A stretch of DNA of 64,000 bases from an uncultured Fibrobacteraceae bacterium (GCA_964524645.1 CAZGEC010000001.1:179994-243993), one strand, 5' to 3'. Positions 10,509-50,202 are shown, counted from the stretch's first letter. Translations and numbers: made by a program. The notes: generated by a model not told the origin, from the sequence alone.

Positions 10509-11774
10509 TTACCACCACTTTTCCATGCCGGTCACCGACAGCGAGAGGCGCCAGACCCTGTCTTCGAGGCCGTTCTCGCCGAGATCACCGATCCAGCCGT
10601 GGGACAGCGCGACATCAAGACTACCGGCATTTCCATGGAAGGGAAAGCCCGTTCCCACGGCGACCCTCAACTCGCGAATGTCCGCGCCCCCCACCTTGTA
10701 GGCCCAGCGGTGCAGGCTCGCGCCGAGACGCAATGGCAGATTGCCCCACGGGTTCCGCCGCGCGGTGCCGCGCAGCCTTTCGACGCCGCAGGAAAGATGC
10801 CACTCGTCCACCATGTCCTGCTGCCAGTCCTCCCGGCCCCGGAATCGTGAGAAGGCGCTGAACTGGTAATCCGCCCCGCAACGCCAGCGTTCCCCGATCC
10901 GGTAATCGGCGCCGGCGGCCCAGGCATAGGGCCAGTCCAGGTGATAGCTGGATTCGGCCTTCCGGGCCACGTTCTCGATCTGCACCGTGCGCTTCACGTC
11001 CACCCCATGGCCCGGGGTGAAGGTGGCACCCAGCCGCAGCCGCGTGTGGGGCTGCAGCTGCAGAGCCAGCGTGCTGGAGGTTCCGCTGAACTCGTCCTCC
11101 TGGATGTGGCTGGGCACGAGGAAATCGGGGACGCCGTTGCTGTCGGCATCGAAGATGAAGAAGTCGTTCAGCACTTCCCGGATATTGCCCCGCACGAGGT
11201 TCAGCCCTGCCGCCAGCCCCAGCCGGGACCAGGGACGCCAGGAGAGGATCAGCGGGATGTCGAACTGCGTGCCCTGGCGCACGAACTCCCTGTCGTACGG
11301 CACGAGCTGGCCCTCGAGGAGGGTGCTGTACCGGCTCACGGTCGTGTACTGCGTGGCGCGGCGGGCCTGAAAACCCGTCGAGAAGACGAGCCGCCCTCCC
11401 TGCAGTGGAATGGCCGCGCGCACGTTGGGGGTGAAGGTGCGGCGCGTCCTGCGCTCGGTGTCGGCCGTCCTGCTGTCGCTGCTCTCGGCGTAGCCGCTCA
11501 GCAGGATGGTCAGGGCGTTCAGCTCTGCCAGGCCCGCCGGGTTCTTGAAGGCCGGGTTCAGCGTGTCGTGCTCGGCCAGCCCCCAGCCGCCCCGGCCCTC
11601 CATGCGCGCATCGGTGCTGCGCACGTCGGCGCCGATGTTGACCAGAGCGAAGGGGCTCTGCCCCCTGGCCGTCGCCGGCGCCAGCAAGTCGCACGCGGCC
11701 CCCATCACCGCGAGGGTCAGCCCCCCCAGGAGCAGGGCTGTCGTCGATCCTCCCCTGCCGCTCCGCCCCCTCAC
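10509..11774 (-). CDS. Outer-membrane beta-barrel protein, PorV/PorQ-like N-terminal motif
   Basis: 421 aa with a signal peptide and alternating beta-strand pattern ending in aromatic W. The N-terminal motif ARMEGRGGWGLAEHDTLNPAFKNPAGLAEL matches the motif in the 442-aa OMP at 41772..43100. Start overlaps the upstream gene by 4 nt. Confidence 0.6.
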   Translation of the reverse strand: MRGRSGRGGSTTALLLGGLTLAVMGAACDLLAPATARGQSPFALVNIGADVRSTDARMEGRGGWGLAEHDTLNPAFKNPAGLAELNALTILLSGYAESSDSRTADTERRTRRTFTPNVRAAIPLQGGRLVFSTGFQARRATQYTTVSRYSTLLEGQLVPYDREFVRQGTQFDIPLILSWRPWSRLGLAAGLNLVRGNIREVLNDFFIFDADSNGVPDFLVPSHIQEDEFSGTSSTLALQLQPHTRLRLGATFTPGHGVDVKRTVQIENVARKAESSYHLDWPYAWAAGADYRIGERWRCGADYQFSAFSRFRGREDWQQDMVDEWHLSCGVERLRGTARRNPWGNLPLRLGASLHRWAYKVGGADIRELRVAVGTGFPFHGNAGSLDVALSHGWIGDLGENGLEDRVWRLSLSVTGMEKWW

Positions 11775-15603: not shown

Positions 15604-16608
15604 GTGCTGTATTCCCAACGCATCACGGGCGGCGATCCTGCGCCTGATCAGATACGGGCCGCCCTCGCTGAACTGGCGGCGGCGCATCCGGATATCATCG
15701 AGTGCCAGGTGCCCTTGCGCGAGCTCACGACCTTTCGCATCGGCGGCCCCGCCCTCGGCCTCGTGCGCGTGCATACTCCGGACGAGGCCCTCAGGTTCCA
15801 GCTCCTGGCCCGGGAGCACGGCCTGCCGCTCGTCGCCCTGGGCGGTGGCAGCAACATCCTGGCGGACGACCGCGGTTTCTGCGGGCTCGTCCTGCGCCTC
15901 GAGCTGGACAGCTTCGCCGTGCGCGGCCATGCCGTCACGGCCGGTGCGGGACTGGCCTTCGATGCTCTCGTGGAGCGCAGCCTGGAAGCGGGGCTCGTGG
16001 GCCTGGAGTTCGCCTCCGGCATCCCCGGCACCGTCGGCGGCGCCGTGGTCGGAAACGCGGGCTGCCACGGCCACGAGATCGGCGAGTTCCTGCGCGAGGC
16101 CGTCGTGTTGCGGCCGGATGGCCGGATCGAGATGGTCACCCCGGCATCCCTGCAGCTGGCCTATCGCAGCTCCGCTCTCAAGTCCAGCGGCGATCTGCTG
16201 TTGGAGGCCACGCTCGAGCTGCGGTCCGGCGACGTCGGGGTTGCCCGGCAGGTCCGCCAGGAGCACCTCGCCCTGCGTCGCCGGAAGCATCCCTGGCGGG
16301 AACCGAGCGCGGGCAGCTACTTCCGCAACCTGCCCCCGGCCTCACCGGAGGGGCGGCGGCAGGCCGCCGGCGAGCTCCTCGACAGGGCCGGGGTCAAGGG
16401 GATGCGCGTGGGCGGGGCCGCGGTCTACGAGCGGCACGCCAACATCATCATCAACACGGGGGGTGCCACCTGCGCCGACGTGCTGGCCCTGGCGGCGCGC
16501 ATGAAGGCCGCGGTCCGCGAGCGGTTCGGTGTCGAGCTGCAGGAGGAGGTCCGCCACCTGCCCTGGCGCTCTGCCGGCGACCCGGATCGGCCGCCCTTCC
16601 TCACTTGA
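15604..16608 (+). CDS. murB: UDP-N-acetylenolpyruvoylglucosamine reductase
   Basis: GTG start with GGGGAGG upstream. FAD-binding and MurB C-terminal motifs are present (GGGSNIL, SGIPGTVGGAVVGNAG, SAGSYFRNLP). Confidence 0.9.
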   Translation: MLYSQRITGGDPAPDQIRAALAELAAAHPDIIECQVPLRELTTFRIGGPALGLVRVHTPDEALRFQLLAREHGLPLVALGGGSNILADDRGFCGLVLRLELDSFAVRGHAVTAGAGLAFDALVERSLEAGLVGLEFASGIPGTVGGAVVGNAGCHGHEIGEFLREAVVLRPDGRIEMVTPASLQLAYRSSALKSSGDLLLEATLELRSGDVGVARQVRQEHLALRRRKHPWREPSAGSYFRNLPPASPEGRRQAAGELLDRAGVKGMRVGGAAVYERHANIIINTGGATCADVLALAARMKAAVRERFGVELQEEVRHLPWRSAGDPDRPPFLT

Positions 16609-19489
16609 GGAGCGTCACCTTGCGGCTGGCTGTCCGGCCCTCTACCGTGACGCTCACCAGGTAGGTCCCGGCGGCCGCGACGCCGTCACGGGCCCGGCCA
16701 TCCCACTCCAGATCGTGGTCGCCTGCGGAATACCAGCGACGCCCCAGATCCGCCACCTTGCGTCCGGCCAGATCCCAGACCGCCGCTTCCACCCAGGCGG
16801 GTCGCTCCAGGGAGAGGCTCATCCGGACGCGGGGGTTGAAGGGATTGGGGCGGGGCTCGTCCAGGCGGAAGCCCCGTGAGGGCTCGACATCCGGCCCTGC
16901 GGAACACCCTCCCGCCAGGGAGGTCAGGGCCAGCACCCCCCCATCTCCGGCCCGCAGCCGGAAGGCGATGCGGCCGTCGGCGCCCGCGGCCAGCCGCGAC
17001 GACGCCACCGCGGAGGCCGGCAGCTCGAGGACGCCCGTCTCGCCTGCCGCGCGCCAGGCTCCGCTCACGGCGACGCCGTCCTGCACGAGAACGCTCCAGC
17101 CCCCGGCCGTTTCCCCTTCCAGCCACCAGCCGCGCCCGGGTGGCAGATCGCAGGTCACGCGTATCGCGCCGTCGACGCAGGCGGCTGCGAGCGGGGCCGG
17201 CACGCTCGGCACGGGATTGGGCTCGATGTTCAGCATGGTCAGGGCCAGCTCGAGGGTGCGGTCCAGCGTGATCATGTCCAGGGTTCCGTCGCGATCCAGA
17301 TCTGCCGTGAGGATACGAGAAGGTTCCAGCGCCGAGCTGAAGGGCACCAAGGGGGAGAGAAACCAGTTAGGACCGGTGATGATGAGCCCGACGCTGTGGT
17401 TCGCCGGGAAGGTGATCAGAACGTCCGCAACCCCGTTCACGTCGATGTCGGCCGTCGTGATCGTGCCGGGTTGCATGTCCAGAACGCGATCATCCACCCT
17501 CAGCTGCATGGTCCCATCGCCCAGGTTTTCCAGATAGGCGAGGGTTCCCTGCTGCTCCTTCTGCACGACCAGGTCCAGGTCGCCGTCGGAATCGAAGTCC
17601 CCCGTTGCCAGGCTGGTGGGCGCGTTGCCCAGATTGTAGAAGCGGACGAGTCCGAACTCGCGACCACCCAGGTTGGCCAGCGTGGTCAGCCGTCCGGTGC
17701 CGTTGCTGACGACGATCTCGGGCAGGCCGTCGTGGCTGAGGTCCATGGCCACGACGTCGGAAACGGCGTCCACCAGGGGCAGGGTCTCGACCTGGGCAAA
17801 CGTGCCGTCGCCGGCCCCGTAGGCCAGGGTGATGTCGTCCGAGCCCTCGTTACCCACCACCAGGTCCTCGATGCCGTCCAGGTCCATGTCGACGGCCTGC
17901 AGGGCAAAGGGCCCGTTACCGGTCGTGAACTCGCTCAGGGGGGTGTATCCCCCGCCGGGCAGCCGCCGCAGGACGCGCACCCGGCGGACGCTCGGTTGAA
18001 CCACGGCCAGATCGCGCAGGGTATCGCCGTCGGCCAGAATCATGGCCAGGGCGCGCGGCTCGGCCGTGAGCGGCACCGGCACCGCGTCGCGCGTGAGATG
18101 GCCGGTGCCGTCGGAGCGCAGGATCTCCACCGTCGGGCTCCCCAGGCAAGCCACCAGCAGGTCCTCGTCTCCGTCCAGGTCCTCGTCGTACGTCAGCCCC
18201 TCGATGGGATTCGGGGGCAGCAGGGTGGCCAGGTATGCCCGGTAGCTGGGACCGTCGTTGCCGAAGAGCAGGGCCACGCTGCGGGACGTGCCGTTGGCGA
18301 CCAGGAGATCCAGGTACTGGTCGCCGTTCAGGCGGCATGACGCGACATCCTCGGCGTGGCCCCCGGTGTAGAAGGTCTCCAGGAGGCTCCAGTCGCCGGC
18401 CTGCCACCGGAAGTAATCCAGCACGCCGCGCTCCCTGCTCCAGCACCAGATGCCCCGGGTGCCGCCGGACATCTCGGCGGCGATCAGACCGTCGGCCTGA
18501 AAGCCGGTTCCGAGCCGGCCGGCCTCGACCAGGCCACCGGCCTGGGGTTCGAACAGGCTCACGTAGGCCGAGTCCGCATAGGTGACCAGCAGCTCCGTCA
18601 CCAGATCGCCGTCTTCGTCGAAGGGCACGCAGCACAGGGGATTGCCGTCGCAAACCGTCTGTGCGGTCAGCGAGTAGCGCCCGCCCGCGTCCCGCCGGAA
18701 GATGGAGAGATCCTCGGAAAGGTAGCCGCTGTCGGACGTGACGACCTCCGGGATCTGATCACCGTCCAGGTCGATGGCCGCCAGCGAGCTGGGATGATCG
18801 CCGCTGTCCACCTCCTGGGTGACCTCCCAGCCTGCTTCCGTCGGCTCCAGGAGCAACCAGCGATCGAAACCGGGCAGGGTCACGGCCAGGGCGATCGCCC
18901 CGTCCTGACCCAGGGGAGCGGCGAGGATGGCGCCGGGATCCTCGTCGAACTCCACGTGGGCCACCATCTCGAAGACCTCTGCACCACCTCGATACCGCAA
19001 GAGCACGACTTGGTCCGGATTGGCCGTCGCCACACCGAGCAGCTCCGCGTGGGTGCCGGGATCGGTGAAGACCTCCAGATCCACGATCGAGCCGCTGATC
19101 TGGAAGAACTCCGTGGGCCGGAATAGGCCGCCCCCGACATGCTCCACCTTGGCGAGAACTCCATCGCTGCGTCCGGCGATCGCCTCCATGATGCCGTCGC
19201 CGTCCACGTCGAAACAGACGATGGAATTCACGGGCTGCTGCAGGAAGACATTGATCTGGCCCGGGAAGTAGAGCCCCACGGCGGCGGCCGCGGCCAGGGG
19301 CGTCAGGAGGAGGCCTCCCACGAGCAGCCGGCAGAACCCCGAGAGCGAGCGGCGCCGGACCGCCCCCCCCGGCGGTGAAGCCGCCCTGCTGCCCGGCCGA
19401 CGATCGCCCGGGGGAGCCTCGAGGGAGAAGGGATGCTGTTGCGCGGACATGGATCCGGTGGCCCTTCGCCGGGGTGGGATACTCGCCAT
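16601..19489 (-). CDS. FG-GAP/VCBS repeat beta-propeller protein with C-terminal FlgD-Ig/T9SS-type sorting domain
   Basis: At least 9 FG-GAP-like DxDGDG repeats (FDVDGDGIMEA, DLDGDQIPEV, DEDGDLVTEL, DFDSDGDLDLVV ...). The last ~83 aa (RPNPFNPRVRMSLSL...EWDGRARDGVAAAGTYLVSVTVEGRTASRKVTLLK) form the CTD. Start is uncertain (19489 or 19450). Confidence 0.75.
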   Translation of the reverse strand: MASIPPRRRATGSMSAQQHPFSLEAPPGDRRPGSRAASPPGGAVRRRSLSGFCRLLVGGLLLTPLAAAAAVGLYFPGQINVFLQQPVNSIVCFDVDGDGIMEAIAGRSDGVLAKVEHVGGGLFRPTEFFQISGSIVDLEVFTDPGTHAELLGVATANPDQVVLLRYRGGAEVFEMVAHVEFDEDPGAILAAPLGQDGAIALAVTLPGFDRWLLLEPTEAGWEVTQEVDSGDHPSSLAAIDLDGDQIPEVVTSDSGYLSEDLSIFRRDAGGRYSLTAQTVCDGNPLCCVPFDEDGDLVTELLVTYADSAYVSLFEPQAGGLVEAGRLGTGFQADGLIAAEMSGGTRGIWCWSRERGVLDYFRWQAGDWSLLETFYTGGHAEDVASCRLNGDQYLDLLVANGTSRSVALLFGNDGPSYRAYLATLLPPNPIEGLTYDEDLDGDEDLLVACLGSPTVEILRSDGTGHLTRDAVPVPLTAEPRALAMILADGDTLRDLAVVQPSVRRVRVLRRLPGGGYTPLSEFTTGNGPFALQAVDMDLDGIEDLVVGNEGSDDITLAYGAGDGTFAQVETLPLVDAVSDVVAMDLSHDGLPEIVVSNGTGRLTTLANLGGREFGLVRFYNLGNAPTSLATGDFDSDGDLDLVVQKEQQGTLAYLENLGDGTMQLRVDDRVLDMQPGTITTADIDVNGVADVLITFPANHSVGLIITGPNWFLSPLVPFSSALEPSRILTADLDRDGTLDMITLDRTLELALTMLNIEPNPVPSVPAPLAAACVDGAIRVTCDLPPGRGWWLEGETAGGWSVLVQDGVAVSGAWRAAGETGVLELPASAVASSRLAAGADGRIAFRLRAGDGGVLALTSLAGGCSAGPDVEPSRGFRLDEPRPNPFNPRVRMSLSLERPAWVEAAVWDLAGRKVADLGRRWYSAGDHDLEWDGRARDGVAAAGTYLVSVTVEGRTASRKVTLLK

Positions 19490-22599: not shown

Positions 22600-23307
22600 C
22601 TAGTGGTACAGATCCTTGATCTTGCCCCAAGTCGAGTTCTCGCTGGCCGTCGGGTCGTTCGGCGGCGTCAGCTTGGTCTTGAAGCTGCGGTCGAAGCCGT
22701 CGGGCACCGGCGTGACCGGCGGATTCGGGTCGGAGATGTCCAGCCCGAGGAAGTTCCAGTCGTTCAAGAAGTACTCCGCCAGGCTGAGGTCGCCGACCCG
22801 CGTGCCTCCGATGAAGTCGCAGGTGCCGGCGCCGGAACCGGTGAACACACCAGGCGGCGTGATGCTGCCGTCCATGAGGTTCAGGGTCCAGCCGTCGTCC
22901 ACGCTCGCGAAGAGGATCAGCTCGCCATCCACGAAGGTGCTGACATCCCCGTAATCGGCGGCCGTACCGCCCGCGATGGGGTCGGAGTATATATGGACCA
23001 TTCCGCCGTTGAAGATGGAGCTCATGCGCGGGAACGGCGGCGGGGGGTAGCTGCTCTGCCCGCCGATGGTCATGCCCTCGACATGAACCGTGTACTGGTA
23101 ATTGTCCATGTCGACGGCGATCGGCGTCGGCACACCACCCACCGTGCTCAGAATCCCGTACACGTCCATGGTCGCGCCCAGCTGATCCGGCGCGGGCGTG
23201 TACGTGGCGTACCCGTTGAAGAGGAACTCGCTCCCCGCCAGCGCTTGCGCAGTCATGAGCAAGGCGATGAGCAACGCTGCAGGAGCCAGGACTTTCTTGA
23301 GCTTCAT
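22600..23307 (-). CDS. Secreted protein, paralogue A, ending in the conserved motif STWGKIKDLYH
   Basis: Signal peptide MKLKKVLAPAALLIALLMTAQALA with GGAGGA RBS. Paralogous to the next gene (DNYQYTVHVEG vs DDYQYTIVIS, VPDGFD vs VPDGYD, same C-terminal motif). Confidence 0.6.
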   Translation of the reverse strand: MKLKKVLAPAALLIALLMTAQALAGSEFLFNGYATYTPAPDQLGATMDVYGILSTVGGVPTPIAVDMDNYQYTVHVEGMTIGGQSSYPPPPFPRMSSIFNGGMVHIYSDPIAGGTAADYGDVSTFVDGELILFASVDDGWTLNLMDGSITPPGVFTGSGAGTCDFIGGTRVGDLSLAEYFLNDWNFLGLDISDPNPPVTPVPDGFDRSFKTKLTPPNDPTASENSTWGKIKDLYH

Positions 23308-23340
23308 GACGTGCATCCTCCTATCCATTGTTGCCCGGCA

Positions 23341-24030
23341 CTAGCGGTACAGGTTCTTGACCTGGCCCCAGGATCCCGGCTCGACGGGGATGGTCGGGTT
23401 GAAGGTCACGTGCCCGTCCATCTCGAGATCGTAGCCGTCAGGCACTTGCGCAGCCAGCGGATCGACCGTACCGGAGAAGATGTTCCCCAGCGGATCGAAC
23501 AGCTCGCCAATATCCGGATGGATGGTCCAGTTGATGTAGCCCTCGAAGCTGCCGACGTGCATCGCCGGGTAGTAGATCATGTAGAAGCTGCTGAAGACGC
23601 CGTGGAGGTAGATGGCCCCGTCGGCGAAGGTCAGCGGAGCGGTCGCGTTCGGCGGTTCGAGCCCGAAGTCGGGAGCCGTGTAAGCGAAGTCGTCGTACCG
23701 CTGGGCCACGATGTCCACCGCACCGCCGGTGTAGCTGATGTAGAACATCCCGCCGCCGAAGTCCGTTTCACCCATGGAAACGAGGTCGGAGATGACAATC
23801 GTGTACTGGTAGTCGTCCGGGCTCCAGACCAAGGGCTCGCTCATGCTCTCGATGAAGCCGACGCCCTCCAGCACGTCGCCGACATTGCTCGGAGGATACC
23901 CCACCACGCCGGGGGTGTTGTCCGACTCGTACATGAATCCCGTGAAGTCCAGGATCGTCTGCGGCTGCGCGAACGCGGAGACGGCCACGAGGCACAGCGC
24001 AAACGACCACAGCATGATGACTCGCTTCAT
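23341..24030 (-). CDS. Secreted protein, paralogue B, ending in the conserved motif GSWGQVKNLYR
   Basis: Signal peptide MKRVIMLWSFALCLVAVSAFAQP with GGGAGGG RBS. Tandem paralogue of 22600..23307. Confidence 0.6.
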   Translation of the reverse strand: MKRVIMLWSFALCLVAVSAFAQPQTILDFTGFMYESDNTPGVVGYPPSNVGDVLEGVGFIESMSEPLVWSPDDYQYTIVISDLVSMGETDFGGGMFYISYTGGAVDIVAQRYDDFAYTAPDFGLEPPNATAPLTFADGAIYLHGVFSSFYMIYYPAMHVGSFEGYINWTIHPDIGELFDPLGNIFSGTVDPLAAQVPDGYDLEMDGHVTFNPTIPVEPGSWGQVKNLYR

Positions 24031-27740: not shown

Positions 27741-30182
27741 TCAATCGGGGGCTCCCGGTGTTCCCTTGCTTCCGGCGGGCTTGGTGAAGGCCTTGACCCG
27801 CTCGGCCAGCTCCCGCAAGCGCTCCTGCACCGCCCGGTTGACGGTGCCCTCGGGCCAGGTGCCGTCGGGCCGCCGTTCCCCGGCTTCTCGGCCGGTCAGA
27901 AGCGCGATGCCCTCGTCGATGGTCTCCACGGAATGGATGTGGAACTTCCCCTGCTTCGCCGCCTCCACGACGTCCTCGCGCAGCATCAGGTGCGGCACGT
28001 TGCTCCGGGGGATGAGCACGCCCTGCCGGCCGGTCAGCCCCCGCGCGCGACAGACGTCGAAGAAACCCTCGATCTTCTCGTTGACGCCACCGATGGCCTG
28101 AACCTGCCCGTGCTGGTTCACCGAGCCGGTGACGGCCAGATCCTGGCGGATCGGCAGGTCCGCCAGGCTGGACAGCAGGGCATACAGCTCGGTGGAGGAC
28201 GCGCTGTCGCCCTCGACCTCCTCGTATAGCTGCTCGAAGGTCAGGCTGGCCGACAGGGCCAGCGGATGCTCCTCCGCGTACTTGCCGCCCAGGTAGCCGG
28301 CCAGGATCAGGGCCCCCTTGTTGTGGATGGGCCCGCCCAGCTCGGTCTCGCGGTCGATGCTCACCACCCCGGCATGCCCGACATGGGTGCGCGCGGTCAC
28401 GCGGGACGGCTTGCCGAAGCTGTAATCGCCCAGGCCGAGCACGGCCAGGCCGTTGACCTGGCCGACGTGTTCCCCCTCGCAGGCGATGAGCAGGGTGCCC
28501 TCGGTGATCAGCTCCTGCAGCCGCTGCTCGATGCGGTTGCTGCGGTAGATCTTCTCCTCGACGGCCTGGGCGACGTCCGCATCCTGCACCAGGTCGTGAC
28601 CGTTCTTGCCGGCCCAGTAGCTGGCCTGGCGGATCAGATCGGCGATGTCCCCGAACTGCGTCGCCAGCTTGCGCTGGTGGGCCGCCATCCGTGCGCTGTG
28701 CTCGATCATCTTGCGCACGCCCGCGGCGTCGAAGTGCCGCAGGTCCTCCTCGCGGCAGATGGAGCCGATGAAGCGGGCGTACTGCTGCAGGGCCTCCTCG
28801 GAGCGATCCATCTGCAGGTCGAAGTCCGCCTTGACCTTGAACAGTTCGTGGAAATCGGGGTCGCGCTGGTAGAGCAGGTAGTAGACCATCGGATCGCCGA
28901 CCACGATGACCTTGATGTCCAGCGGGATCGGTTCGGGATCGAGCGTGCGGGTGGTGATGTAGCCGTAGGCCTCGCCCATGCTCTCGATCTTGATCTCCTT
29001 GTTCCGCAGGGCGCGCTTGAGGGCGTCCCAGGCCAGCGGGCGGGTCAGGATGTCGAAGGCGTTGACCATCAGGAAACCACCGTTGGCCCGGTGCAGGGCG
29101 CCGCACTTGATCATGTGAAAGTTGGTGACCAGGGTCCCGAAGCGTCCCATGTGCTCGATGCGCCCCACCAGGTTGGGGTGGGTGGGATTGGTCTCCTGCA
29201 CCACCGGTGCGCCGCGCATCTCCTGGCAGTCCACCAGCAGGTTGACCCTGTACTGCTCGAAGCTGGGCTCCTGGCCCGCCTGGAACATGGCCGACGCCAG
29301 CTGCTGCTTGTCCGAGAGCTGTTCCATCTCCTTCAGGCGCTTGAAGGCCGGCACGTTTTCCAGCAGATCGCGGCGGGCGTTGTCCAGGTACTCGCCGACG
29401 GCGGGTAGTTCCTCGTAGCGTTCCTTCAGGTCGTCGATGAGATGGTTGATAGCGAAGCCGATGACCTGCCGGTCCAGCGCCTCGGCGCGCTCCTTGCCTT
29501 CCTTCTGCAGCTGCTGCACCCGGCGCATGGTGTCGCGTAGCTCCCCCTGCATGTGCTCCTGGCGCCGTTCGATGTCCTTCTGCTCCTGCTCCGACAGGTC
29601 GCTCATCTGGTCCGGGGTGACGATGTCGCCGCCCTTGATGGGGGCGATGATCAAGCCCTGGGGCGTCTGGAGCAACCGCACGCCGGTTTCATCGGCCTTC
29701 TTCTCCAGCTCCTCGAACATCTCCCTGCGGCGGCGCTGCAGTTCGCTCTCGATGCGCTCCTGCTCCTGGGTGTACTGCTTGCCCTCGAAGGCCTGCGGCA
29801 CCTCCTTGCGCAGCTCCTCCACCAGACGGTTCATGTCGTCGCGGAAGCGGCGCCCCTGGCCGGCGGGCAGGCACAGGGCCCGCGGCTTGTCCGGATCCTC
29901 GAAGTTGTTGACGTAGAGCCAATCGTCGGGGACCGGCTGGTCGGCGGCCTTGCGCTCGAGGAACTTGCGGATGATGGAGGCCTTGCCGGTTCCCGCGGGA
30001 CCGAGGGCGAACATGTGATAGCCCGGGCTCTCCATGTCCATCCCGAACTCCACCGCTCGCATGGCTCGCGCCTGGCCGATCACGTCTTCCAGCGGGGCAA
30101 GGTCGGCGGTGCTGGCGAAATCGAAGCAATCGGGCGAACAGAGCAGTCTCATGCGCTCGGGGGATACTTCCTCGCTGGCCAT
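27741..30182 (-). CDS. Lon-like ATP-dependent protease (AAA+ ATPase fused to Lon S16 proteolytic domain; LonC/YcbZ-like)
   Basis: 813 aa. Walker A GPAGTGKAS near the N-terminus, a long coiled/alpha region, and a C-terminal Lon protease domain (...TGSVNQHGQVQAIGGVNEKIEGFFDVCRARGLTGRQGVLIP, catalytic Ser-Lys pattern). GGAGGAG RBS upstream. Confidence 0.8.
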   Translation of the reverse strand: MASEEVSPERMRLLCSPDCFDFASTADLAPLEDVIGQARAMRAVEFGMDMESPGYHMFALGPAGTGKASIIRKFLERKAADQPVPDDWLYVNNFEDPDKPRALCLPAGQGRRFRDDMNRLVEELRKEVPQAFEGKQYTQEQERIESELQRRRREMFEELEKKADETGVRLLQTPQGLIIAPIKGGDIVTPDQMSDLSEQEQKDIERRQEHMQGELRDTMRRVQQLQKEGKERAEALDRQVIGFAINHLIDDLKERYEELPAVGEYLDNARRDLLENVPAFKRLKEMEQLSDKQQLASAMFQAGQEPSFEQYRVNLLVDCQEMRGAPVVQETNPTHPNLVGRIEHMGRFGTLVTNFHMIKCGALHRANGGFLMVNAFDILTRPLAWDALKRALRNKEIKIESMGEAYGYITTRTLDPEPIPLDIKVIVVGDPMVYYLLYQRDPDFHELFKVKADFDLQMDRSEEALQQYARFIGSICREEDLRHFDAAGVRKMIEHSARMAAHQRKLATQFGDIADLIRQASYWAGKNGHDLVQDADVAQAVEEKIYRSNRIEQRLQELITEGTLLIACEGEHVGQVNGLAVLGLGDYSFGKPSRVTARTHVGHAGVVSIDRETELGGPIHNKGALILAGYLGGKYAEEHPLALSASLTFEQLYEEVEGDSASSTELYALLSSLADLPIRQDLAVTGSVNQHGQVQAIGGVNEKIEGFFDVCRARGLTGRQGVLIPRSNVPHLMLREDVVEAAKQGKFHIHSVETIDEGIALLTGREAGERRPDGTWPEGTVNRAVQERLRELAERVKAFTKPAGSKGTPGAPD

Positions 30183-33136: not shown

Positions 33137-33598
33137 TCAGTCCCGGGTTGCCCGCAGCCAGGCCAGCAGGCCACAGCCCCGGTCGTCCGGCTCCGGCGCG
33201 TAGATCCGCTTCCCGAGGTGCTCGGCCAGCTCAGCTTCGCGGCCGGCGGACTTGAAGTAGAAGGCCGCCATGTCGTCGGCATACCACCAGTCGCCGTCTC
33301 GCTCGATCTCCTCGGCCCGCCGGTCGGGATCCCGGACCAGGTCCACGTGTTCACGGAACCACGTCTCGTCCTGGAACGCGCCTTCGCAGAGTTTGAAGAC
33401 GGTTCCCCGGCCGTCCGGCGCCTGGCCCTGCTTCTCCAGCAGGCGCACGGTCTTGACGGCACCGCCGATGCAGACGAGGCGCGTGAACCCGCAGCGGCGG
33501 ATCGTGCGTTCGAGCGTGCCCTCGGCCAGCGCCGGTTTCACGCAGCCTGTCTCCGCACCCAGCACGGTGCCGTCGATGTCGAAGTAGAGGATCTTCAT
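33137..33598 (-). CDS. HAD-superfamily hydrolase-like small protein
   Basis: Start M35 of the track ORF. MKILYFDIDGTVLG contains the HAD motif I DxDGT. 153 aa. Start overlaps the upstream gene's stop (ATGA). Confidence 0.55.
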   Translation of the reverse strand: MKILYFDIDGTVLGAETGCVKPALAEGTLERTIRRCGFTRLVCIGGAVKTVRLLEKQGQAPDGRGTVFKLCEGAFQDETWFREHVDLVRDPDRRAEEIERDGDWWYADDMAAFYFKSAGREAELAEHLGKRIYAPEPDDRGCGLLAWLRATRD

Positions 33599-34059
33599 GG
33601 GCGGATCCCGGACCAGCGATAACGCTCCTTGAGCGCTCCCCAGGACCTCCGGGTGGTGGCCGTGACACCGGGTTTGAGGATCAGGGTCTCGGTGTTCCAT
33701 TCTGCCGACGGGCAGATGCCGAACTGGATCAGGATGGTGCCGTTCCGCTCCGGATCGACCAGGTTCCCCTCGATCGGGATCAGCATCTGCTCCCCCTCGG
33801 CGATGGTCGCGGTGCAGAAGCCGTCCATCATGATCTGGCCGATGTCGGTGTTGTCATGTCCATCGAGATTCTGGAAGGCGAACTGGGCATCGCCGGGACC
33901 GGCCGTGAAGAGCGCCGTGAAATCGAAGTGCCCGGTGGCGTCGCTCTGCACCTGGGCCGGAGCATCGAAGGTATGAGCCATGGCCGCGGTGGCTCCCAGG
34001 AGAATGGCCAGGATCAGGCCCGGCAGACCCGGGCGCAGGATGGATGGCCGACGAGACAT
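33595..34059 (-). CDS. Small secreted protein with C-terminal SWGALKERYR motif
   Basis: Signal peptide MSRRPSILRPGLPGLILAILLGATAAMA. The C-terminal ...TTRRSWGALKERYRWSGIRP resembles the C-termini of the tandem paralogues at 22600..24030. Confidence 0.55.
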   Translation of the reverse strand: MSRRPSILRPGLPGLILAILLGATAAMAHTFDAPAQVQSDATGHFDFTALFTAGPGDAQFAFQNLDGHDNTDIGQIMMDGFCTATIAEGEQMLIPIEGNLVDPERNGTILIQFGICPSAEWNTETLILKPGVTATTRRSWGALKERYRWSGIRP

Positions 34060-35879: not shown

Positions 35880-37133
35880 TCAATGCAGCCGGAAGACGAT
35901 GGTGATGACACCCCACTGCTCCACCGCCGCCTGTTCGGCGCGCAGAGGGGCGAAGCGGAACTGCTTGAGAGCCTCCATGGCGGAGCGGTTCAGGTCGCGG
36001 TGCACCGAGCTCTGCTCGAAGTACATGTTGTCCTTGACCCGGCCGTCGGCCAGCACGGTGAAGTGCACTGCCACGACCCCCTCCCAGCCATGCCGGCGGG
36101 CCTCGTCGGGGTACACCGGCGTCACGCTGGAGAGGATCTTGCGGCCCTGGATCTGACCGGAGATGGTCATGCTCACGCCCTGGCCGGAGGCCGGCACCTC
36201 GGCCACGGACTGCGGGGCGCTCTCCTGCTTCTGCTCCTGCTGGACGATGGTCCGGGTGTCGACGACCTCGGCCAGCCGGCCGCGCCGCCCCGCCAGGGCG
36301 CCGCCACCGCCCCCGCTGCCCGTCCCGTAGTCGAGGATCGTCTTGCGGGCGGAGCTCTCGCTGCCGCCGCCGCCGCTCGGGCCTCCCACGTCCACGACGC
36401 CGGAGCCGCCGGAGTCGTGCGTCGTGCGGGTCGCGGGCGCGAGGCCCGCCACCACGGCGGGCGCCGTTCCCTGAGCCGCGCGCAGGGCACCCCCGCCCAG
36501 GTTGGCCGGCACATCGGCCACGGTTCCCCGCGACCCGCCGCTCGGCGCGGCCACGGGCTTGTCGGTGATGATGATCTTGCCGCTGCGGCTCTGCAGGCTG
36601 GCGCTGGCCGGCCGGAAGGCATCGGCGGCCGGCGCACCGGCGGCCGGCGTCAGCCTGGCCGTCGCGTCCGCGACCTGCTGGGCGCGCAGCTCCCGCTGGT
36701 CCAGGACGGGCTGGACCGCGGCCTGGAAGTCCTTGGCTTCCAGCTTGCTGCTCGCCTCGAGCATCTGCGGCTGGGCCTTGGGCGCTATCTGCGGCGCCGC
36801 CACGTCCATCACGGCCGGCTTGGACTCCGGCCGCGGCGGCTCCGGCGATTTCGACTTCGGCTTGATGGCCGAATCGGTGCTGATCCCCCGCCCCGGTTCT
36901 TCCGCCAGCTGCGGCCGGAGGGGCATCTGCTTGAGCTTCACCTTGGCGGCGACGTCCTCGCCATAGGTGGCCTCGATGTACGAGATCTCGGTCAGCTCTC
37001 CCACCTTGTCCAGCAAACCCGTCTGACGGCCCACCTGGTAGAGGAGCAGCAGGAAGAGCAGCGCATGGAGAGCCGTGCTGGCCACCAGGCTGCCCCGCGT
37101 GGGGCGGCTGCGGTCCACGGCGGTCCTGATCAT
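35880..37133 (-). CDS. tonB: TonB-family energy transducer (second copy)
   Basis: N-terminal TM (LVASTALHALLFLLLLY), Pro/Ala/Gly-rich linker and a TonB_C domain (ILSSVTPVYPDEARRHGWEGVVAVHFTVLADGRVKD...AMEALKQFRFAPL). Start overlaps the exbD stop (ATGA). Confidence 0.75.
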   Translation of the reverse strand: MIRTAVDRSRPTRGSLVASTALHALLFLLLLYQVGRQTGLLDKVGELTEISYIEATYGEDVAAKVKLKQMPLRPQLAEEPGRGISTDSAIKPKSKSPEPPRPESKPAVMDVAAPQIAPKAQPQMLEASSKLEAKDFQAAVQPVLDQRELRAQQVADATARLTPAAGAPAADAFRPASASLQSRSGKIIITDKPVAAPSGGSRGTVADVPANLGGGALRAAQGTAPAVVAGLAPATRTTHDSGGSGVVDVGGPSGGGGSESSARKTILDYGTGSGGGGGALAGRRGRLAEVVDTRTIVQQEQKQESAPQSVAEVPASGQGVSMTISGQIQGRKILSSVTPVYPDEARRHGWEGVVAVHFTVLADGRVKDNMYFEQSSVHRDLNRSAMEALKQFRFAPLRAEQAAVEQWGVITIVFRLH

Positions 37134-37543
37134 TGCTCCCCCCCTTCGTCCTTCTGCCGGGTCGCCAGGGCGATGCGCGGCGCCTGGGCCGCTTCCACCT
37201 TGGCGATCAGCTGCTCGACGTCCCCGTAGATCAGGGCCTTGTCGGCCTTCACCACCGCCACGCCGTCCGGAGCCGCCTCGAACAGCTCCTTCAGGAAGGG
37301 CTGCAGCTCCTCGGGCTCCACCTGGAAGTCCCCCACGAAGATCTCGTGGTCCAGGGTGTAGGTGATCTCGATGTTGTCCGCGTCGTCCACCTCGCTGGCC
37401 CGTGCCTCCGGCAGATCGACGCCCTGCTCGTTCTCGCTCAGGAAGGGAGCGATCAGCATGAGGGTCAGCACGACCACCAGCGAGACGTTGATGATCGGTG
37501 ACACGTCGATCGTGTTCTCGTAGTTGAAGCCGTGCGGGATCAT
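37130..37543 (-). CDS. exbD: ExbD/TolR biopolymer transport protein (copy 2 of 2 in this cluster)
   Basis: Start M32 of the track ORF. MIPHGFNYENTIDVSPIINVSLVVVLTLMLIAPF. Confidence 0.8.
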   Translation of the reverse strand: MIPHGFNYENTIDVSPIINVSLVVVLTLMLIAPFLSENEQGVDLPEARASEVDDADNIEITYTLDHEIFVGDFQVEPEELQPFLKELFEAAPDGVAVVKADKALIYGDVEQLIAKVEAAQAPRIALATRQKDEGGEQ

Positions 37544-37974
37544 GGCCGCCCTCCCAGCTCGTTCAGGAGGGCCAGGGCCCCGGCGCCGCTCGCCTTGGCG
37601 ATGTCCAGGACCGTGACCACCTGGCCATAGAGGCACTGATCGACCGGCACGATGACGACCGTCTTGTCGTCACGGGCCGCCAGCCGAGCCCGCAGCTTCC
37701 CCTCCAGCTCGGCCAGGGTCACCGTCTCGCCCGCCAGGACGATCCGATCCGGCTCCACGCGGATGGTCGTGATCTCGTCCTTGGCCTTGACGGTGGGCGT
37801 GATCACCTGCTCCTCGGAGCTGGCCTCGGCGGAGTTCACCTGGATGCCGTTCCACATGATGGCCGGCATGGTGATGAGGAAGACGACGATGAGCGTCGTC
37901 GTCACGTCCGCCAGCGGCGTGACGTTGGCCCGGGTGATCGCGGCGGTGAAGCGTCCTTGCTTACTGATGGACAT
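37540..37974 (-). CDS. exbD: ExbD/TolR biopolymer transport protein (copy 1 of 2)
   Basis: MSISKQGRFTAAITRANVTPLADVTTTLIVVFLITMP. GGAGAGG RBS. Stop overlaps the next exbD start. Confidence 0.8.
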   Translation of the reverse strand: MSISKQGRFTAAITRANVTPLADVTTTLIVVFLITMPAIMWNGIQVNSAEASSEEQVITPTVKAKDEITTIRVEPDRIVLAGETVTLAELEGKLRARLAARDDKTVVIVPVDQCLYGQVVTVLDIAKASGAGALALLNELGGRP

Positions 37975-37995
37975 GTTGCTACCTCGCCTCTCCGC

Positions 37996-38721
37996 CTACT
38001 TGAGGATGTCGGCCAGGACCGGCTCCAGATCCATGTTGGTCTTGGCCGGCTTGCGCGACGCCGGAGCCTTGGCGGCGGTCTCCTGCGCCGGCGCGACCTT
38101 GCGGAGCAGGTTGGCGCGCAGGATGAAGAACTCCTCGCGCGCGTCCTCCATGTCCACCACGCGGCAGCGAATCTGCCGCACGAAGGTGTTGAAGAACACC
38201 GTGGCGATCACCGCGACGATGATGCCGGCGGCCGTGGTCATGAGGGCCTCGGAAACGCCCATGGCCACCACGGAGCTGCCCCCGGAACCGGTGCGGGCGA
38301 TATCCGCGAAGGCGCGGATGATCCCGACCACCGTGCCGAAGAGGCCGAGCAGGGGCGCGATGTTGCTCATGGTCCCCAGCAGGCTGAGGTGGCGCTCCAT
38401 CTCCACCTGCTCCACCTCGATGGCGGTGTTGATGCGCTGCTGCAGGTCCTCGCGGCTGCGGTGCATGTTGGTCACGGCCTGGGCCATGACCCGGGCGACC
38501 GCCCCCTTGCCTTTCCGGCAGTACTCCAGCGCGCCCTTGGCATTGTTCGCGTTCACCAGCGGGCCCAGCTCCTTCATGAAGCGCCCGACGTTCTGGCGGG
38601 TGGCGCGGAAGTAGAAGGTCCGCTCGAGGGCGAAGCCGACCGTGATGATGGAGCAGACGAGCAGCACCACCATGGTCGGCGAGGCCAGGAACAGATCGAT
38701 GAGCGACAGTTCGCCAAACAT
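37996..38721 (-). CDS. exbB: MotA/TolQ/ExbB proton-channel protein (second copy)
   Basis: 241 aa, 3 TM, conserved ...APLLGLFGTVVGIIRAF...EALMTTAAGIIVAVIATVFFN. AGGAGAGG RBS. Confidence 0.85.
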   Translation of the reverse strand: MFGELSLIDLFLASPTMVVLLVCSIITVGFALERTFYFRATRQNVGRFMKELGPLVNANNAKGALEYCRKGKGAVARVMAQAVTNMHRSREDLQQRINTAIEVEQVEMERHLSLLGTMSNIAPLLGLFGTVVGIIRAFADIARTGSGGSSVVAMGVSEALMTTAAGIIVAVIATVFFNTFVRQIRCRVVDMEDAREEFFILRANLLRKVAPAQETAAKAPASRKPAKTNMDLEPVLADILK

Positions 38722-38751
38722 TTCCCTCTCCTTACTCTCCCGTTGTGCCGG

Positions 38752-41700
38752 CTAGCCGCCGGCGACCTCCATTTCCCTCAGGGCGGCGATCCGGCCTTGG
38801 GCCATCTCGGTCCATTCGGGTTTCCCGTGGGCATCGACGATCTTTTGGTAGGCGGTGATGGCCCCCGCCCAGTCCCCCCGCTTCTCCAGGATCTGGCCGA
38901 TCTGGGCCAGGCTGGCGATCCGGAAGGGATCGACGGCGGAACCGGCATCCGCCTTGCGGTAGCTGGCCAGGGCCTGCTCGAGGTCTCCGGCCTTCTCCCA
39001 GCACTCACCCTGGCGGAAGCGGATCTCCGCCGGGTTGGTCCCGTCCTGGGCCAGCGCCTTCTCGTAGGCGTCGACCGCATGGGGATAATCCCCGAGCTCC
39101 TCCTGATAAAGCGCACCGACCTGCTGCCAGAGGCCCTTGGCGTTCTCGTGGTTCGGGTACTGGGCCAGGAAGCGCTCGTAGCCGCCGACCGCGGCCGTCC
39201 AGTCCTCCAGCTCCTGGTAGCAGATGGCGGCGTTGTAGGCCGCCAGCGCCGCGTACTCCCCTTCCGGGAAGAGGTCCATCATCGCCTCGTAGGCGGCGGC
39301 GGACTCGGTGAAGCGCTCCAGCTTGAAGAGCACCGTGGCGGCGCGGAAGTGCGCCAGCTCCGCCAGGTCGTTCTCGGGATGGGTGGTCGTGAAGTTGCGG
39401 TACCCGGCCAGAGCCGGCTCCAGCTCCTCCTGCCGGTAGTAGCTCTCCGCCAGGTAGAACAGGGCGCCGGGACCGCTCTCGCTGTCCGGGTAGTCCAGGG
39501 TCACCTTCTCGAAGGCCTTGGCGGCCGTCGTGTAGTCGCCGGCCGCAAAGGCCTCCTGGCCCTTGTTCCAGTAGACGTCCGCGGCCAGGGCGCTGTCGGG
39601 ATGGCGATCCAGGTACTGCGTCATGTCCTTGCCGCTGCGGTAGTAGCAGGACTGGATCCCCAGCTCGGCGTCCTCGACGCGCTCGTCGTCCGGATAGGTC
39701 TCGGCGAAGGAGGAGAAGGCCGCGATCGCCGCCTCGTCCTCGCCCAGGTTGTATGCGCAGCTGGCGATGCCGAAGGCGGCATCGGCAACGTGCGCGCCCT
39801 GCGGGTAGCTGCTCTGCAAGCGCCGGTAGCTGGTCCGGGCCTCGGCGAAGCGCGCCAGTCCGAACTGGGTGTCGGCGATGCGATAGAGCGCTTCCGCGGC
39901 CTCGGCCGACTGGGGAAAGCGGGCCAGCAGGTCGGACCAGGTCTGCAAGGCCTGCTCGTAGTACTGGAGGCGGTAGTAGCATGCGCCGAGGTTCTGGAGC
40001 GCCGCCGGGGCCTCGGGGCTGTTCGGGTGCTTCTCCAGAAAGCCCGTGAACTGCTGCAGGGCCTCCTGGTAGTTGTGCTGGTTGAAGTGGATGCTGCCGA
40101 CCGCCAGAGCGTTGTTGCCCTCCTCGCTGTCCGCGTTGCCGAGCGCGAGCAGGAACTTCTGCTGCTCCGCCAGGGCCAGCTCGTAATCTCCGCACCGGCT
40201 GAGGCTGGCCACCAGCCCCTGCAAGGCGGGCGCGGCCACGTTGCTGCGCGGGTAGCCCGTCAGCACCAGCCGGTACATGTCACCGGCCTGCTGGTACAGG
40301 CCCTGGGCGTAGTAGGCCTCGCCGAGATAGTAGTAGGTCCGGGCCCGCCAGTAGCTCGGCGTGGGCAGCAGGCGGCTGGCGATGTAGTTGTAGTTGGTGA
40401 TCACGCGATCGAGCTGACCCTGTTCCGTGTAGGCCAGCGTCGAGAGGAAGAGAGCGCGCTCGGCGACGTCGGTGTTGACGTTCTTGTCCAGCACGTTCTG
40501 ATAGGCCATGACGGCCTCGTTGTACTCGCCGAGCTTGTAGTGGCTGAAGCCCTTCAGCACGTGCACGCGGGCGGCCAGGGGATCGCCGGGGAATCGCTTC
40601 AGGAACTCCTGGGCCATGAGGACGGCCTGGCCGTAGTTGCCCTCGGAGACGTAGGCATAGCAGATCTTGTGCAGGGCAGCGCTGGCCACGTGACTCTCGC
40701 CGAACCCGTGCACGACCTCGGTGTACGCGAAGATGGCCTCGGCGGTGCGCTCCAGCTGCATGTAGCAATCGCCGATCAGGTACTGGGCGTAGGCGCAGAC
40801 CATGTCGCCGGCGAAGCTCTTGCAGATCTCCTCCAGCTGACGGATGCTCTCGTCGAAACGCCCCTCGCTGTAGGTCACGCACGCCATCTTGTAGCGCGCG
40901 TTGGGCACGAACGGGCTCTCCGGGAAGTCGTCGATGAAGGAGCGGTAGCTGCGCACGGCCACGGCGTTCTGACCGCTGCGATAGAAGGCCTCGGCGATGC
41001 TGAAGGCGACGTCGTCCGCCAGGGGGCTGTCGGGATACTGCCGCAGCACCTGCTTGTAGCGCTGGATGGCGAGGATGTACTTGCCCGTGTCCTCGTAGCA
41101 GCGTCCCAGGTAGTAGAGCCCGCGGTCGCTCGGCACCTCCTCGAAGTAGGCCGTTGCGTCCTCGTAGCGCTGCTCCTGGTAGGCGAACAGGCCGAGGGCG
41201 AACTTGACCTGGGGCAGTTCCTTGTAGCCGGGGCGCGACTCCAGCAGCTCGCGATAGGCCGCGCGCAGCTTCAACCAGTTGCCCTGCACGATGTAGGTCA
41301 GGCCGCTCTCGTAGAGCGCCTCGGCCAGCAGGAAGGTGTCGTCGTACTTGTCCACCAGCCTGTCGTAGGAAGCGATCGCTGCGTCGAAATCACCCAGGTT
41401 GAAGTGGCACTCGCCCCGGCGCAGGAGCACGCTGGCCGCGAGGTAGTCGTCCCGCCCCTTGTACTTTTCCACGCGGTCGTACTCCTGCAGAGCCGCCTTG
41501 TAGTCGCCCACGGCGAAGTAGCACTCGCCCAGCATGTACTGAGCCCGGGCCGCGCGGTTGCTCTTGTGATAGGTCTGCACGAAGAGACGGTACTGCTGCA
41601 TGGCGGCCGATTTGTCCACGCCGGCGGCGTAGGCCGCACCGGCCGCTTGCCACAGAGCGTCCTCGGTGGGCACCTCGCTATCCTTGGCGAGGACCGGGCC

Positions 41701-41775
41701 GGTCCAGGTCAGGCTCAAGCCCAGCAGCAAGAGCAGGACTGCGGCGCCGCGGCGTCCGCTGGCTGCGGATCTCAT
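38752..41775 (-). CDS. Large TPR-repeat protein (about 20+ TPR units), secreted
   Basis: 1007 aa with a signal peptide (AAVLLLLLGLSLTWTGPVLA), then tandem 34-aa TPR units (A..Y.LG.CYF..G.Y..A...Y). 4-nt overlap with the upstream PorV-like gene. Confidence 0.8.
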   Translation of the reverse strand: MRSAASGRRGAAVLLLLLGLSLTWTGPVLAKDSEVPTEDALWQAAGAAYAAGVDKSAAMQQYRLFVQTYHKSNRAARAQYMLGECYFAVGDYKAALQEYDRVEKYKGRDDYLAASVLLRRGECHFNLGDFDAAIASYDRLVDKYDDTFLLAEALYESGLTYIVQGNWLKLRAAYRELLESRPGYKELPQVKFALGLFAYQEQRYEDATAYFEEVPSDRGLYYLGRCYEDTGKYILAIQRYKQVLRQYPDSPLADDVAFSIAEAFYRSGQNAVAVRSYRSFIDDFPESPFVPNARYKMACVTYSEGRFDESIRQLEEICKSFAGDMVCAYAQYLIGDCYMQLERTAEAIFAYTEVVHGFGESHVASAALHKICYAYVSEGNYGQAVLMAQEFLKRFPGDPLAARVHVLKGFSHYKLGEYNEAVMAYQNVLDKNVNTDVAERALFLSTLAYTEQGQLDRVITNYNYIASRLLPTPSYWRARTYYYLGEAYYAQGLYQQAGDMYRLVLTGYPRSNVAAPALQGLVASLSRCGDYELALAEQQKFLLALGNADSEEGNNALAVGSIHFNQHNYQEALQQFTGFLEKHPNSPEAPAALQNLGACYYRLQYYEQALQTWSDLLARFPQSAEAAEALYRIADTQFGLARFAEARTSYRRLQSSYPQGAHVADAAFGIASCAYNLGEDEAAIAAFSSFAETYPDDERVEDAELGIQSCYYRSGKDMTQYLDRHPDSALAADVYWNKGQEAFAAGDYTTAAKAFEKVTLDYPDSESGPGALFYLAESYYRQEELEPALAGYRNFTTTHPENDLAELAHFRAATVLFKLERFTESAAAYEAMMDLFPEGEYAALAAYNAAICYQELEDWTAAVGGYERFLAQYPNHENAKGLWQQVGALYQEELGDYPHAVDAYEKALAQDGTNPAEIRFRQGECWEKAGDLEQALASYRKADAGSAVDPFRIASLAQIGQILEKRGDWAGAITAYQKIVDAHGKPEWTEMAQGRIAALREMEVAGG

Positions 41776-43100: not shown

Positions 43101-43109
43101 GCTGTTCCC

Positions 43110-49871: not shown

Positions 49872-50202
49872 GGGTACCCGCGCCTCGTCGTGGTGATTTG
49901 CACCCTTCTCCGGGGCGGCTTCGCAATATGCGACGTCGGCTGGCTCGCCCGGAGGACTTTCCGTGGTTCGGAAGGCGGGCCGCAAGGCGCATGCCAGGGG
50001 GTGGTGCGGTCGGTGATTTCCAGTGAGGGGGCGGAATACCCGGTCGTGGGGCAGCGAGATGCGAGCGCCTCAGGTATCCTGCCACGCTCGTTCCCGGCCA
50101 CCGGATGAGCAGGGCGAAGACCGGCGGCCACCGGAGGCGGGCAGCCAGCCATCCCGTTTTCGTGATCGATTATGACAAGAACATTCAATATTTAGAACTT
50201 GG

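Follow-up and report, generated by a model that had tools for sequence, protein, structure and literature searches.

A short conserved C-terminal motif as a putative sorting tag on exported proteins of Candidatus Eisenbacteria and neighbouring lineages

The stretch of DNA considered here (the window) comprises 64,000 nucleotides of an uncultured Fibrobacteraceae bacterium (GCA_964524645.1 CAZGEC010000001.1:179994-243993; GC content ~68%). It encodes three small secreted proteins whose C-termini share a short motif, hereafter called the tag or the tail. The corresponding open reading frames (ORFs), named genes A, B and C, had been pointed out by inspection of this stretch alone (the sequence-only reading), and all three were found, all on the minus strand. 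Gene A (22600..23307) encodes a secreted small beta-barrel/sandwich protein of 235 residues, identical to P0001 and ending in ...ENSTWGKIKDLYH; a search of contigs for the exact protein A gave no match. Gene B (23341..24030) lies 33 bp upstream in the same orientation and encodes a distant paralogue of A, 229 residues long and ending in ...EPGSWGQVKNLYR. Gene C (33595..34059) encodes a secreted protein of 154 residues, which ends in ...RRSWGALKERYRWSGIRP. Direct reading of the sequences shows a signal peptide at each N-terminus: MKLKKVLAPAALLIALLMTAQALA followed by G in A (23236..23307), MKRVIMLWSFALCLVAVSAFA followed by Q in B (23968..24030) and MSRRPSILRPGLPGLILAILLGATAAMA followed by H in C (33976..34059). 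In all three cases the cleavage site is a predicted one, derived for A from the AxA rule.

At the other end of these proteins, the tag of A, linker included, reads PPNDPTASENS-TWGKIKDLYH (22603..22665) and is directly followed by the stop codon TAG (22600-22602). That of B reads PTIPVEPG-SWGQVKNLYR (23344..23397), again followed by TAG (23341-23343). In C, the core of the tag is SWGALKERYR (33616..33645). Across the six frames of the window, WG..K..[YFW] is matched at three sites and no others, namely the C-termini of A, B and C. A stricter degenerate DNA motif that includes the stop codon matches B and C in the window, where 0.00 matches are expected from 100 shuffles. A and B had been described as clear paralogues: their paralogy is supported by sequence comparison (E=1e-5) and by overlapping profile families, but with 22% identity they are distant relatives, not close ones. 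Protein C had been called otherwise unrelated to the two others, and sequence comparison agrees, as no relationship of C to A or B was detected. None of the three proteins matched a Pfam or NCBIfam model at E<=1, and, as the sequence-only reading had it, none has a transmembrane (TM) segment after the motif.

The idea of a shared extreme C-terminal tail holds for A and B; protein C departs from it in that it runs six residues, WSGIRP (33598..33615), past the tag. The only homologue of C that was found, P0028 (72% identical), ends exactly at the tag (...ESWGTLKERYR), and gene C has TGG where P0028 has its stop codon. Beyond WSGIRP, the ORF is closed by a TGA, which shares nucleotides with the ATG that starts the next gene. 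The extension thus looks like the product of a stop-to-TGG change that lets the ORF reach this ATG; decay of the tag, tolerance of extra residues or an error in sequencing would account for it. The downstream gene (33137-33598) has no Pfam match; its product starts with MKILYFDIDGT, which we take to be a HAD-phosphatase-like motif.

The distribution of the tag was studied with a DNA scan of one genome per species, covering 185,579 species. The pattern, WSSTGGGGNNNNVTSAAGNNNNNNTAYCGSTRR, encodes [ST]WGx[IVLM]KxxYR followed by a stop codon. The scan gave at least 119 loci and at least 127 matches. Among the matches listed, 126 of 127 have a true stop codon directly after the motif (the pattern itself includes a stop), and most of them close long ORFs. 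Position within proteins was then read from a set of 1106 coding-like ORFs taken from the window and from 907 kb of neighbourhoods of tail genes. In this set the motif is found 121 times at a C-terminus and twice at an internal position, while amino-acid composition predicts 0.09 occurrences overall and ~0.002 terminal ones. The C-terminal enrichment proposed for verification by the sequence-only reading is therefore borne out.

The proteins that carry the tag are diverse. After removal of the tail, 111 proteins among the matches listed fall into 78 BLAST clusters, and a Pfam domain is present in only ~15 of 92 tail proteins. The Pfam domains are right-handed beta-helix/NosD, pectate lyase, CBM, lamin-tail (LTD), InhA-like MAM, FG-GAP, PD40 propeller, plastocyanin/cupredoxin and ThuA, and the NCBIfam matches comprise choice-of-anchor V, Y and J domains, TolB-like, halocyanin and ExeM-like families. 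An NCBIfam scan of ten selected tail proteins did not recover the choice-of-anchor V members. Judged from these matches, the cargo would be of types typical of surface or extracellular proteins. Moreover, a signal-peptide-like N-terminus is seen in 97 of 107 complete tail ORFs (~91%) vs 190 of 589 control ORFs.

Alignment of the tails defines a logo of ~17 residues, P-[TV]-P-[VT]-E-x-[ST]-[TS]-W-G-x-[VIL]-K-x-L-[YF]-R-COOH, with an optional Cys ahead of it. Positions -17 to -11, -4 and -3 are conserved although the search pattern did not force them, and the set of A/B relatives collected by homology yields the same logo as the scan set. The Pro/Thr-rich linker noted before the tail by the sequence-only reading is present, but it is not a mere linker and belongs to the conserved P-[TV]-P-[VT]-E element. 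From one family to another, W, G, K, Y and R are nearly invariant. Of 91 unbiased tails, 77 end in Arg and none in an aromatic residue, and 6 of 91 family members have Arg in place of the Lys at -5. Such near-invariance is more in line with a specific protein that recognizes the tag than with an anchor acting through general physicochemical properties. At the DNA level, no conservation is seen past the stop codon, the GGN codon uses all four bases and synonymous positions vary. Thus, selection acts on the peptide rather than on the DNA, and an origin of the tag as a DNA repeat is ruled out by the same observations.

The tail contains no hydrophobic stretch of 16 residues or more; only 9-10 residues, W-G-x-[IVL]-K-x-L-Y-R, follow the spacer. 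In the AlphaFold 2 (AF2) model of A (mean predicted local distance difference test score, pLDDT, 86.9), a helix (7-23) precedes a beta core (28-214), and the tail is drawn as a helix with pLDDT ~55 outside the fold. In the model of B (mean pLDDT 80.3), a helix (2-15) precedes a beta-barrel/sandwich core, and the tail is strand-like with pLDDT <50. In both models, the small core is predicted with confidence, whereas the tail amounts to 10-20 residues that form no domain behind a low-confidence linker, and its secondary structure differs from one protein to the other. Going by these models, the tag appears to behave as a short linear motif and not as a structural strand.

A Cys is found 9-11 residues before the Trp in 48 of 92 tails (positions -20 to -18), directly ahead of P-[VT]-P-[VT]-E. 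A second Cys is often located a few to tens of residues upstream of the first, and A, B and C have no tag Cys. The total number of Cys in the Cys-bearing tail proteins is even in 29 cases and odd in 19. The tag Cys was set aside as a lipidation or cleavage site, since only about half of the tails have it and Cys totals are mostly even. It is likely to form a disulfide that staples the domain at its end, and it may also have a role in processing.

Within cargo families, the tag is a stable feature. All 26 database homologues of A carry [ST]WGx[IV]KxL[YF]x at their extreme end, with W227 and K231 invariant, and the tail is kept at the extreme end in 34 of 34 homologues of B. A profile search of 1.84 billion representatives gave 336 members for the A/B superfamily. 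The tail is kept in 120 of the best 150 of these 336 members, and those of the best 150 that lack it are mostly K-to-R or W-to-F variants, or fragments. The order B-then-A is a conserved two-gene unit that recurs among different neighbours in other metagenome-assembled genomes (MAGs), and tandem pairs are also found in loci L011, L015, L038 and L088. A further arrangement is seen in locus L062 (1645-6975, plus strand), where seven paralogous ORFs lie in tandem, all of them closed by a variant tag, ...WG.[IVL]K[GCL][LI][FY][RS]. The two of these paralogues that were examined begin with a lipoprotein-like signal (...LVSGC); at this locus the tag is joined with lipoprotein signals, and Phe is preferred over Tyr.

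The tag has a narrow taxonomic range. Among the at least 119 loci, 40 are labelled Candidatus Eisenbacteria and 59 are from unclassified 'bacterium' MAGs. Twelve carry other labels of the type of the Fibrobacterota-Chlorobiota-Bacteroidota (FCB) group (Krumholzibacteria, Latescibacteria, Gemmatimonadota, 'Fibrobacteraceae', Effluviviaceae). Six more (L026, L040, L065, L078, L092 and L111), mostly contigs of 2-7 kb, sit in bins of other phyla, labelled Limnocylindria, Polyangiaceae, Verrucomicrobiia, Anaerolineaceae and Acidobacteriota. At least three of the proteins concerned (L026, L040, L065) cluster with proteins on contigs labelled Eisenbacteria or belonging to unclassified MAGs, and mis-binning is likely for the contigs of these other-phylum bins. 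Two loci resemble chance matches, the first, in Humidesulfovibrio, being an ORF of 62 residues and the second, in Nocardia, a TGG case. From these labels, the tag appears restricted to Candidatus Eisenbacteria and neighbouring FCB-type lineages, and an Eisenbacteria genome probably encodes tens to more than 100 tagged proteins.

Within one lineage, many unrelated proteins with signal peptides have one and the same short motif at their extreme C-terminus, which is what a sorting tag is expected to look like. Terminal enrichment, the 78 cargo clusters and the signal peptides all support the proposal of the sequence-only reading that an undescribed sorting or recognition tag is carried by differing cargos. 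On this basis, we favour, with some reserve, the view that all these tails represent one short linear tag, specific to the lineage, by which Sec-exported proteins are sorted or recognized. In the corresponding mechanism, the N-terminal signal peptide would first carry the protein across the inner membrane, leaving the tag, predicted to be unstructured, tethered to the folded domain by a flexible linker. A trans-acting envelope receptor or enzyme would then read both the tag and its free carboxyl end and set the final location of the protein, either by export across the outer membrane or by attachment to this membrane or to the cell surface. More speculatively, the conserved P-x-P-x-E element could be a processing site. 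If the tag were helical, W(-9), I/V(-6), L(-3) and Y(-2) would form one hydrophobic face beside K(-5) and R(-1), an arrangement that would suit docking in a groove.

A more specific proposal can be put forward tentatively, and we hold it to be less probable than its negation: a new envelope sorting pathway of Eisenbacteria and their FCB-group neighbours, in which a dedicated receptor or processing enzyme would read the ~17-residue unstructured peptide and deliver or attach about a hundred proteins per cell. Such a pathway would be a bacterial counterpart of peptide addressing of the PTS1 or KDEL style and would form a new class beside sortase-type and T9SS signals. For the machinery itself, taken separately, there is a substantial chance that it is new.

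Several points weigh against the view of the tails as a sorting tag. No receptor, sortase or protease was found in the 907 kb of tail-gene neighbourhoods, and no gene family is recurrently adjacent to tail genes there; the co-occurring sortase or protease that the sequence-only reading had suggested looking for was thus not seen in these neighbourhoods. Short extensions past the tag occur in 28 of 120 tailed representatives of the A/B family, in addition to protein C in the window. If such extensions are tolerated, a strict need for a free -YR-COOH end is weakened, unless those copies decay. Genes for proteins with the C-terminal domain (CTD) recognized by the type IX secretion system (T9SS) make up 16 of 154 neighbours of tail genes against a background of 7.5%, which is not clearly above it. 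Finally, the signal-peptide test was a heuristic, not a trained predictor, and the scan used GC-rich codons, so that taxonomic breadth and per-genome counts are lower bounds only.

The families that do recur in the 1106 ORFs around tail genes are T9SS-CTD proteins and housekeeping proteins only, the latter comprising ABC ATPase, Ser/Thr kinase, cysteine desulfurase, PglZ regulator, M16 and M20 peptidases and glycosyltransferase. No cognate sortase-like enzyme (exosortase, sortase, rhombosortase or myxosortase) was seen among the recurrent neighbours in the 8-kb blocks and the one 64-kb window. In another MAG, the B-A pair lies in a neighbourhood unrelated to that of the window. The window also encodes, on the minus strand, a LonC/LonB-like AAA+ protease of 813 residues (27741-30182) and a BamG-family-like protein (10509-11774; E 7e-31, but under the curated score cut-off); no link of either with the tag is evident.

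The T9SS deserves particular attention. In the window, a PorV/PorQ-family outer-membrane protein is encoded at 41772-43100 (minus strand; NF033709, 2e-34). An 886-residue protein with a T9SS type A sorting domain is encoded at 50339-52999 (plus strand; TIGR04183 score 28.4 against a cut-off of 23), a 2291-residue protein ending in a T9SS-type CTD at 43110-49985 (minus strand), and a protein with a CTD-like end at 16601-19489. CTD proteins are also common in tail loci: 47 ORFs belong to a CTD-linked cluster, and a stricter regular expression retains 35 ORFs in 29 loci. None of the 1106 ORFs encodes a protein with both tail and CTD. The last cargo domains of some tail proteins align to domains that elsewhere precede a T9SS CTD, a tail of ~15 residues standing in place of a CTD of ~100. 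Judged from these alignments, the tail appears to occupy the architectural slot of the T9SS CTD on homologous cargo in the same genomes. In addition, P0153 (761 residues) has an A-like N-terminal domain (residues 1-208), further sequence and a T9SS CTD (...GIYFARLKAGQSVYTKRLVLIR), with no tag, and can be read as a natural exchange of address labels on one cargo. It seems rather probable to us that the tag is a second, much smaller C-terminal address label used beside the CTD. A scheme in which tail proteins would piggy-back on a CTD carrier was rejected, the adjacency figures given above (16 of 154 against 7.5%) not being convincing.

Some features of the genes around the PorV/PorQ-family gene can be mentioned here. 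An envelope gene cluster extends over 35880-49985 (minus strand), with a TonB-family gene (35880-37133), then three small ORFs (37130-38721, minus strand) which, from their position, may be ExbD/ExbD/ExbB, a gene for a multi-TPR protein of 1007 residues (38752-41775, minus strand) with YbgF, BamD and PorW-like repeats, the PorV/PorQ-family gene and the gene of the large CTD protein. On the plus strand, the product of 50339-52999 weakly resembles models of multihaem c-type cytochromes (ExtKL-like, GEGP dihaem, NrfH-like), with scores under their cut-offs, and may be an extracellular cytochrome exported by the T9SS.

Four other explanations of the tails have been weighed, and they rank, from the strongest to the weakest, as a miniature T9SS signal, an amphipathic anchor, docking to a scaffold, and an origin by chance, from a single domain family or from a DNA repeat. 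According to the first, the tail would be read by the T9SS machinery itself, through a PorV-family shuttle or the SprA translocon, and would constitute a third class of CTD beside types A and B. The PorV/PorQ-family gene and CTD-bearing proteins of the window speak for it, as do the confinement of the tag to T9SS-bearing FCB-type lineages and the interchangeable but mutually exclusive use of tail and CTD on homologous cargo. Both signals end in a hydrophobic-hydrophobic-basic-COOH sequence ([LV][LV][RK] in the CTD, L-Y-R in the tail), and of the 16 cases in which a CTD gene is located beside a tail gene, 14 have both genes on one strand. However, the likeness in the last three residues is weak, the tail has no sequence similarity to TIGR04183 or PF18962, and CTD genes are not significantly more frequent beside tail genes than in the background. 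T9SS signals known so far are immunoglobulin (Ig)-like folded domains of 70-100 residues, and we know of no precedent for a T9SS signal made of 17 unstructured residues. Altogether, this explanation appears unlikely.

According to the second explanation, the tail would be a short cationic-aromatic amphipathic helix that needs no receptor and anchors the protein in the plane of a membrane leaflet or of lipopolysaccharide. A helical wheel of the logo does place W(-9), I/V(-6), L(-3) and Y(-2) together, flanked by K(-5) and R(-1), AF2 draws a helix in the tail of A, and Lys-to-Arg replacement is tolerated (6 of 91). Moreover, C-terminal amphipathic anchors of the PBP5 type are known and offer a precedent. 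Nine residues are, however, very short for such an anchor, which would not need placement at the extreme C-terminus, and the tail of B is strand-like with low confidence in the AF2 model. Above all, anchors conserve a pattern and not residue identity, whereas here W, G, K, Y, R and P-x-P-x-E are near-invariant across more than 78 families. We consider this explanation improbable.

The third explanation, which we also regard as improbable, is that the tail is a docking peptide, similar to a dockerin or to a PDZ or TPR ligand, that gathers exported proteins onto one scaffold or surface layer. This role would suit a free and flexible C-terminal peptide that is highly conserved and borne by a variety of enzymes and binding modules, and the window has genes for large TPR proteins, for instance 38752-41775. 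On the other hand, the 907 kb showed no scaffold protein in which receptor modules are repeated, and, as docking and sorting predict the same features, the data do not separate the two.

The last explanation (chance, the final strand of one domain family, as envisaged in the sequence-only reading, or a translated DNA repeat) is refuted: although A and B are paralogous and could have inherited their common tail, C is unrelated to them, only 0.002 terminal matches are expected, DNA is not conserved beyond the needs of the codons, and the 78 cargo clusters together with the location of the tail outside the AF2 folds of A and B show that it is not the last strand of one family.

Should the tails be sorting or recognition tags, as we propose, several consequences would follow. 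LPXTG, PEP-CTERM, GlyGly-CTERM and the T9SS CTD have each led to a dedicated envelope machine, and each is now an annotation handle for a surface proteome. Eisenbacteria form an uncultured phylum common in soils, groundwater and wastewater, and the tag would provide the same handle for this whole phylum, marking a large set of 'hypothetical' proteins as one functional cohort. It would also be a precise bait in the search for the receptor, by phylogenetic profiling or co-folding. Its specificity would be sufficient for a taxonomic marker, and it could flag contamination in bins. Once the machinery is known, it could serve as a portable tag. Having neither TM helix nor domain, the proposed tag would be smaller than any other envelope address label known from diderm bacteria.

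The tag can finally be compared with the signals already known. Literature searches (on the motif, Eisenbacteria, choice-of-anchor, and C-terminal sorting with T9SS) found no published description of the tail, and in the comparison of 92 tail proteins with Pfam and NCBIfam no model of a C-terminal sorting signal matched it. With no curated model and no publication found, the tag looks undescribed. As the sequence-only reading had stated for PEP-CTERM, GlyGly-CTERM, LPXTG, the beta-barrel signal and the T9SS CTD, the tails lack the defining features of each of these signals.

The sortase-type signals, PEP-CTERM with exosortase, LPXTG with sortase, GlyGly-CTERM with rhombosortase, and MYXO-CTERM, resemble the tag in being lineage-specific, short, C-terminal and carried by many unrelated secreted cargos per genome. 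The resemblance extends to the 'choice-of-anchor' cargo and to a signature of Pro and acidic residues, here P-x-P-x-E, upstream of a distal element with a basic end. Unlike the tail, though, these signals have a TM helix followed by a basic cluster, whereas the nine residues after the spacer of the tail cannot span a membrane. A regular-expression search found no C-terminus of the TM-plus-basic, PEP-CTERM, LPXTG or GlyGly-like type in the 1106 ORFs. Lysine chemistry of the Lpp-like or isopeptide kind was ruled out, as the conserved Lys is at -5, not terminal, and is Arg in 6 of 91 tails. The beta-signal of outer-membrane beta-barrels differs as well, since the tail ends in Arg, never in an aromatic residue, and a flexible linker separates it from the fold.

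Peptides that load cargo into encapsulins or bacterial microcompartments are, like the tag, short conserved terminal peptides borne by diverse cargo on a flexible linker, but they act in the cytoplasm on proteins devoid of signal peptides, whereas ~91% of the tail cargo has a signal peptide. The eukaryotic PTS1 (-SKL) and KDEL signals belong to another domain of life and another compartment and have another sequence. They do not imply a homologous receptor, and the analogy is functional only: in both cases a very short motif at the extreme C-terminus is, or for the tag would be, read by a receptor independently of the fold of the cargo.

The closest comparison is with the T9SS type A CTD (TIGR04183 / PF18962 Por_Secre_tail). 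The CTD folds into an Ig-like domain of 70-100 residues, whereas the tail is a peptide of ~17 residues, predicted to be unstructured, with another motif and without similarity at the level of hidden Markov models. None of the 92 tail proteins matches the Por_Secre_tail or TIGR04183 models, while the CTD protein encoded by 50339-52999, taken as a positive control, does. Nevertheless, the CTD is, like the tag, a C-terminal label on Sec-exported proteins of FCB-group bacteria, with a hydrophobic-hydrophobic-basic end. The two are carried by the same kinds of cargo, partly homologous, in the same genomes, where each protein bears one or the other.

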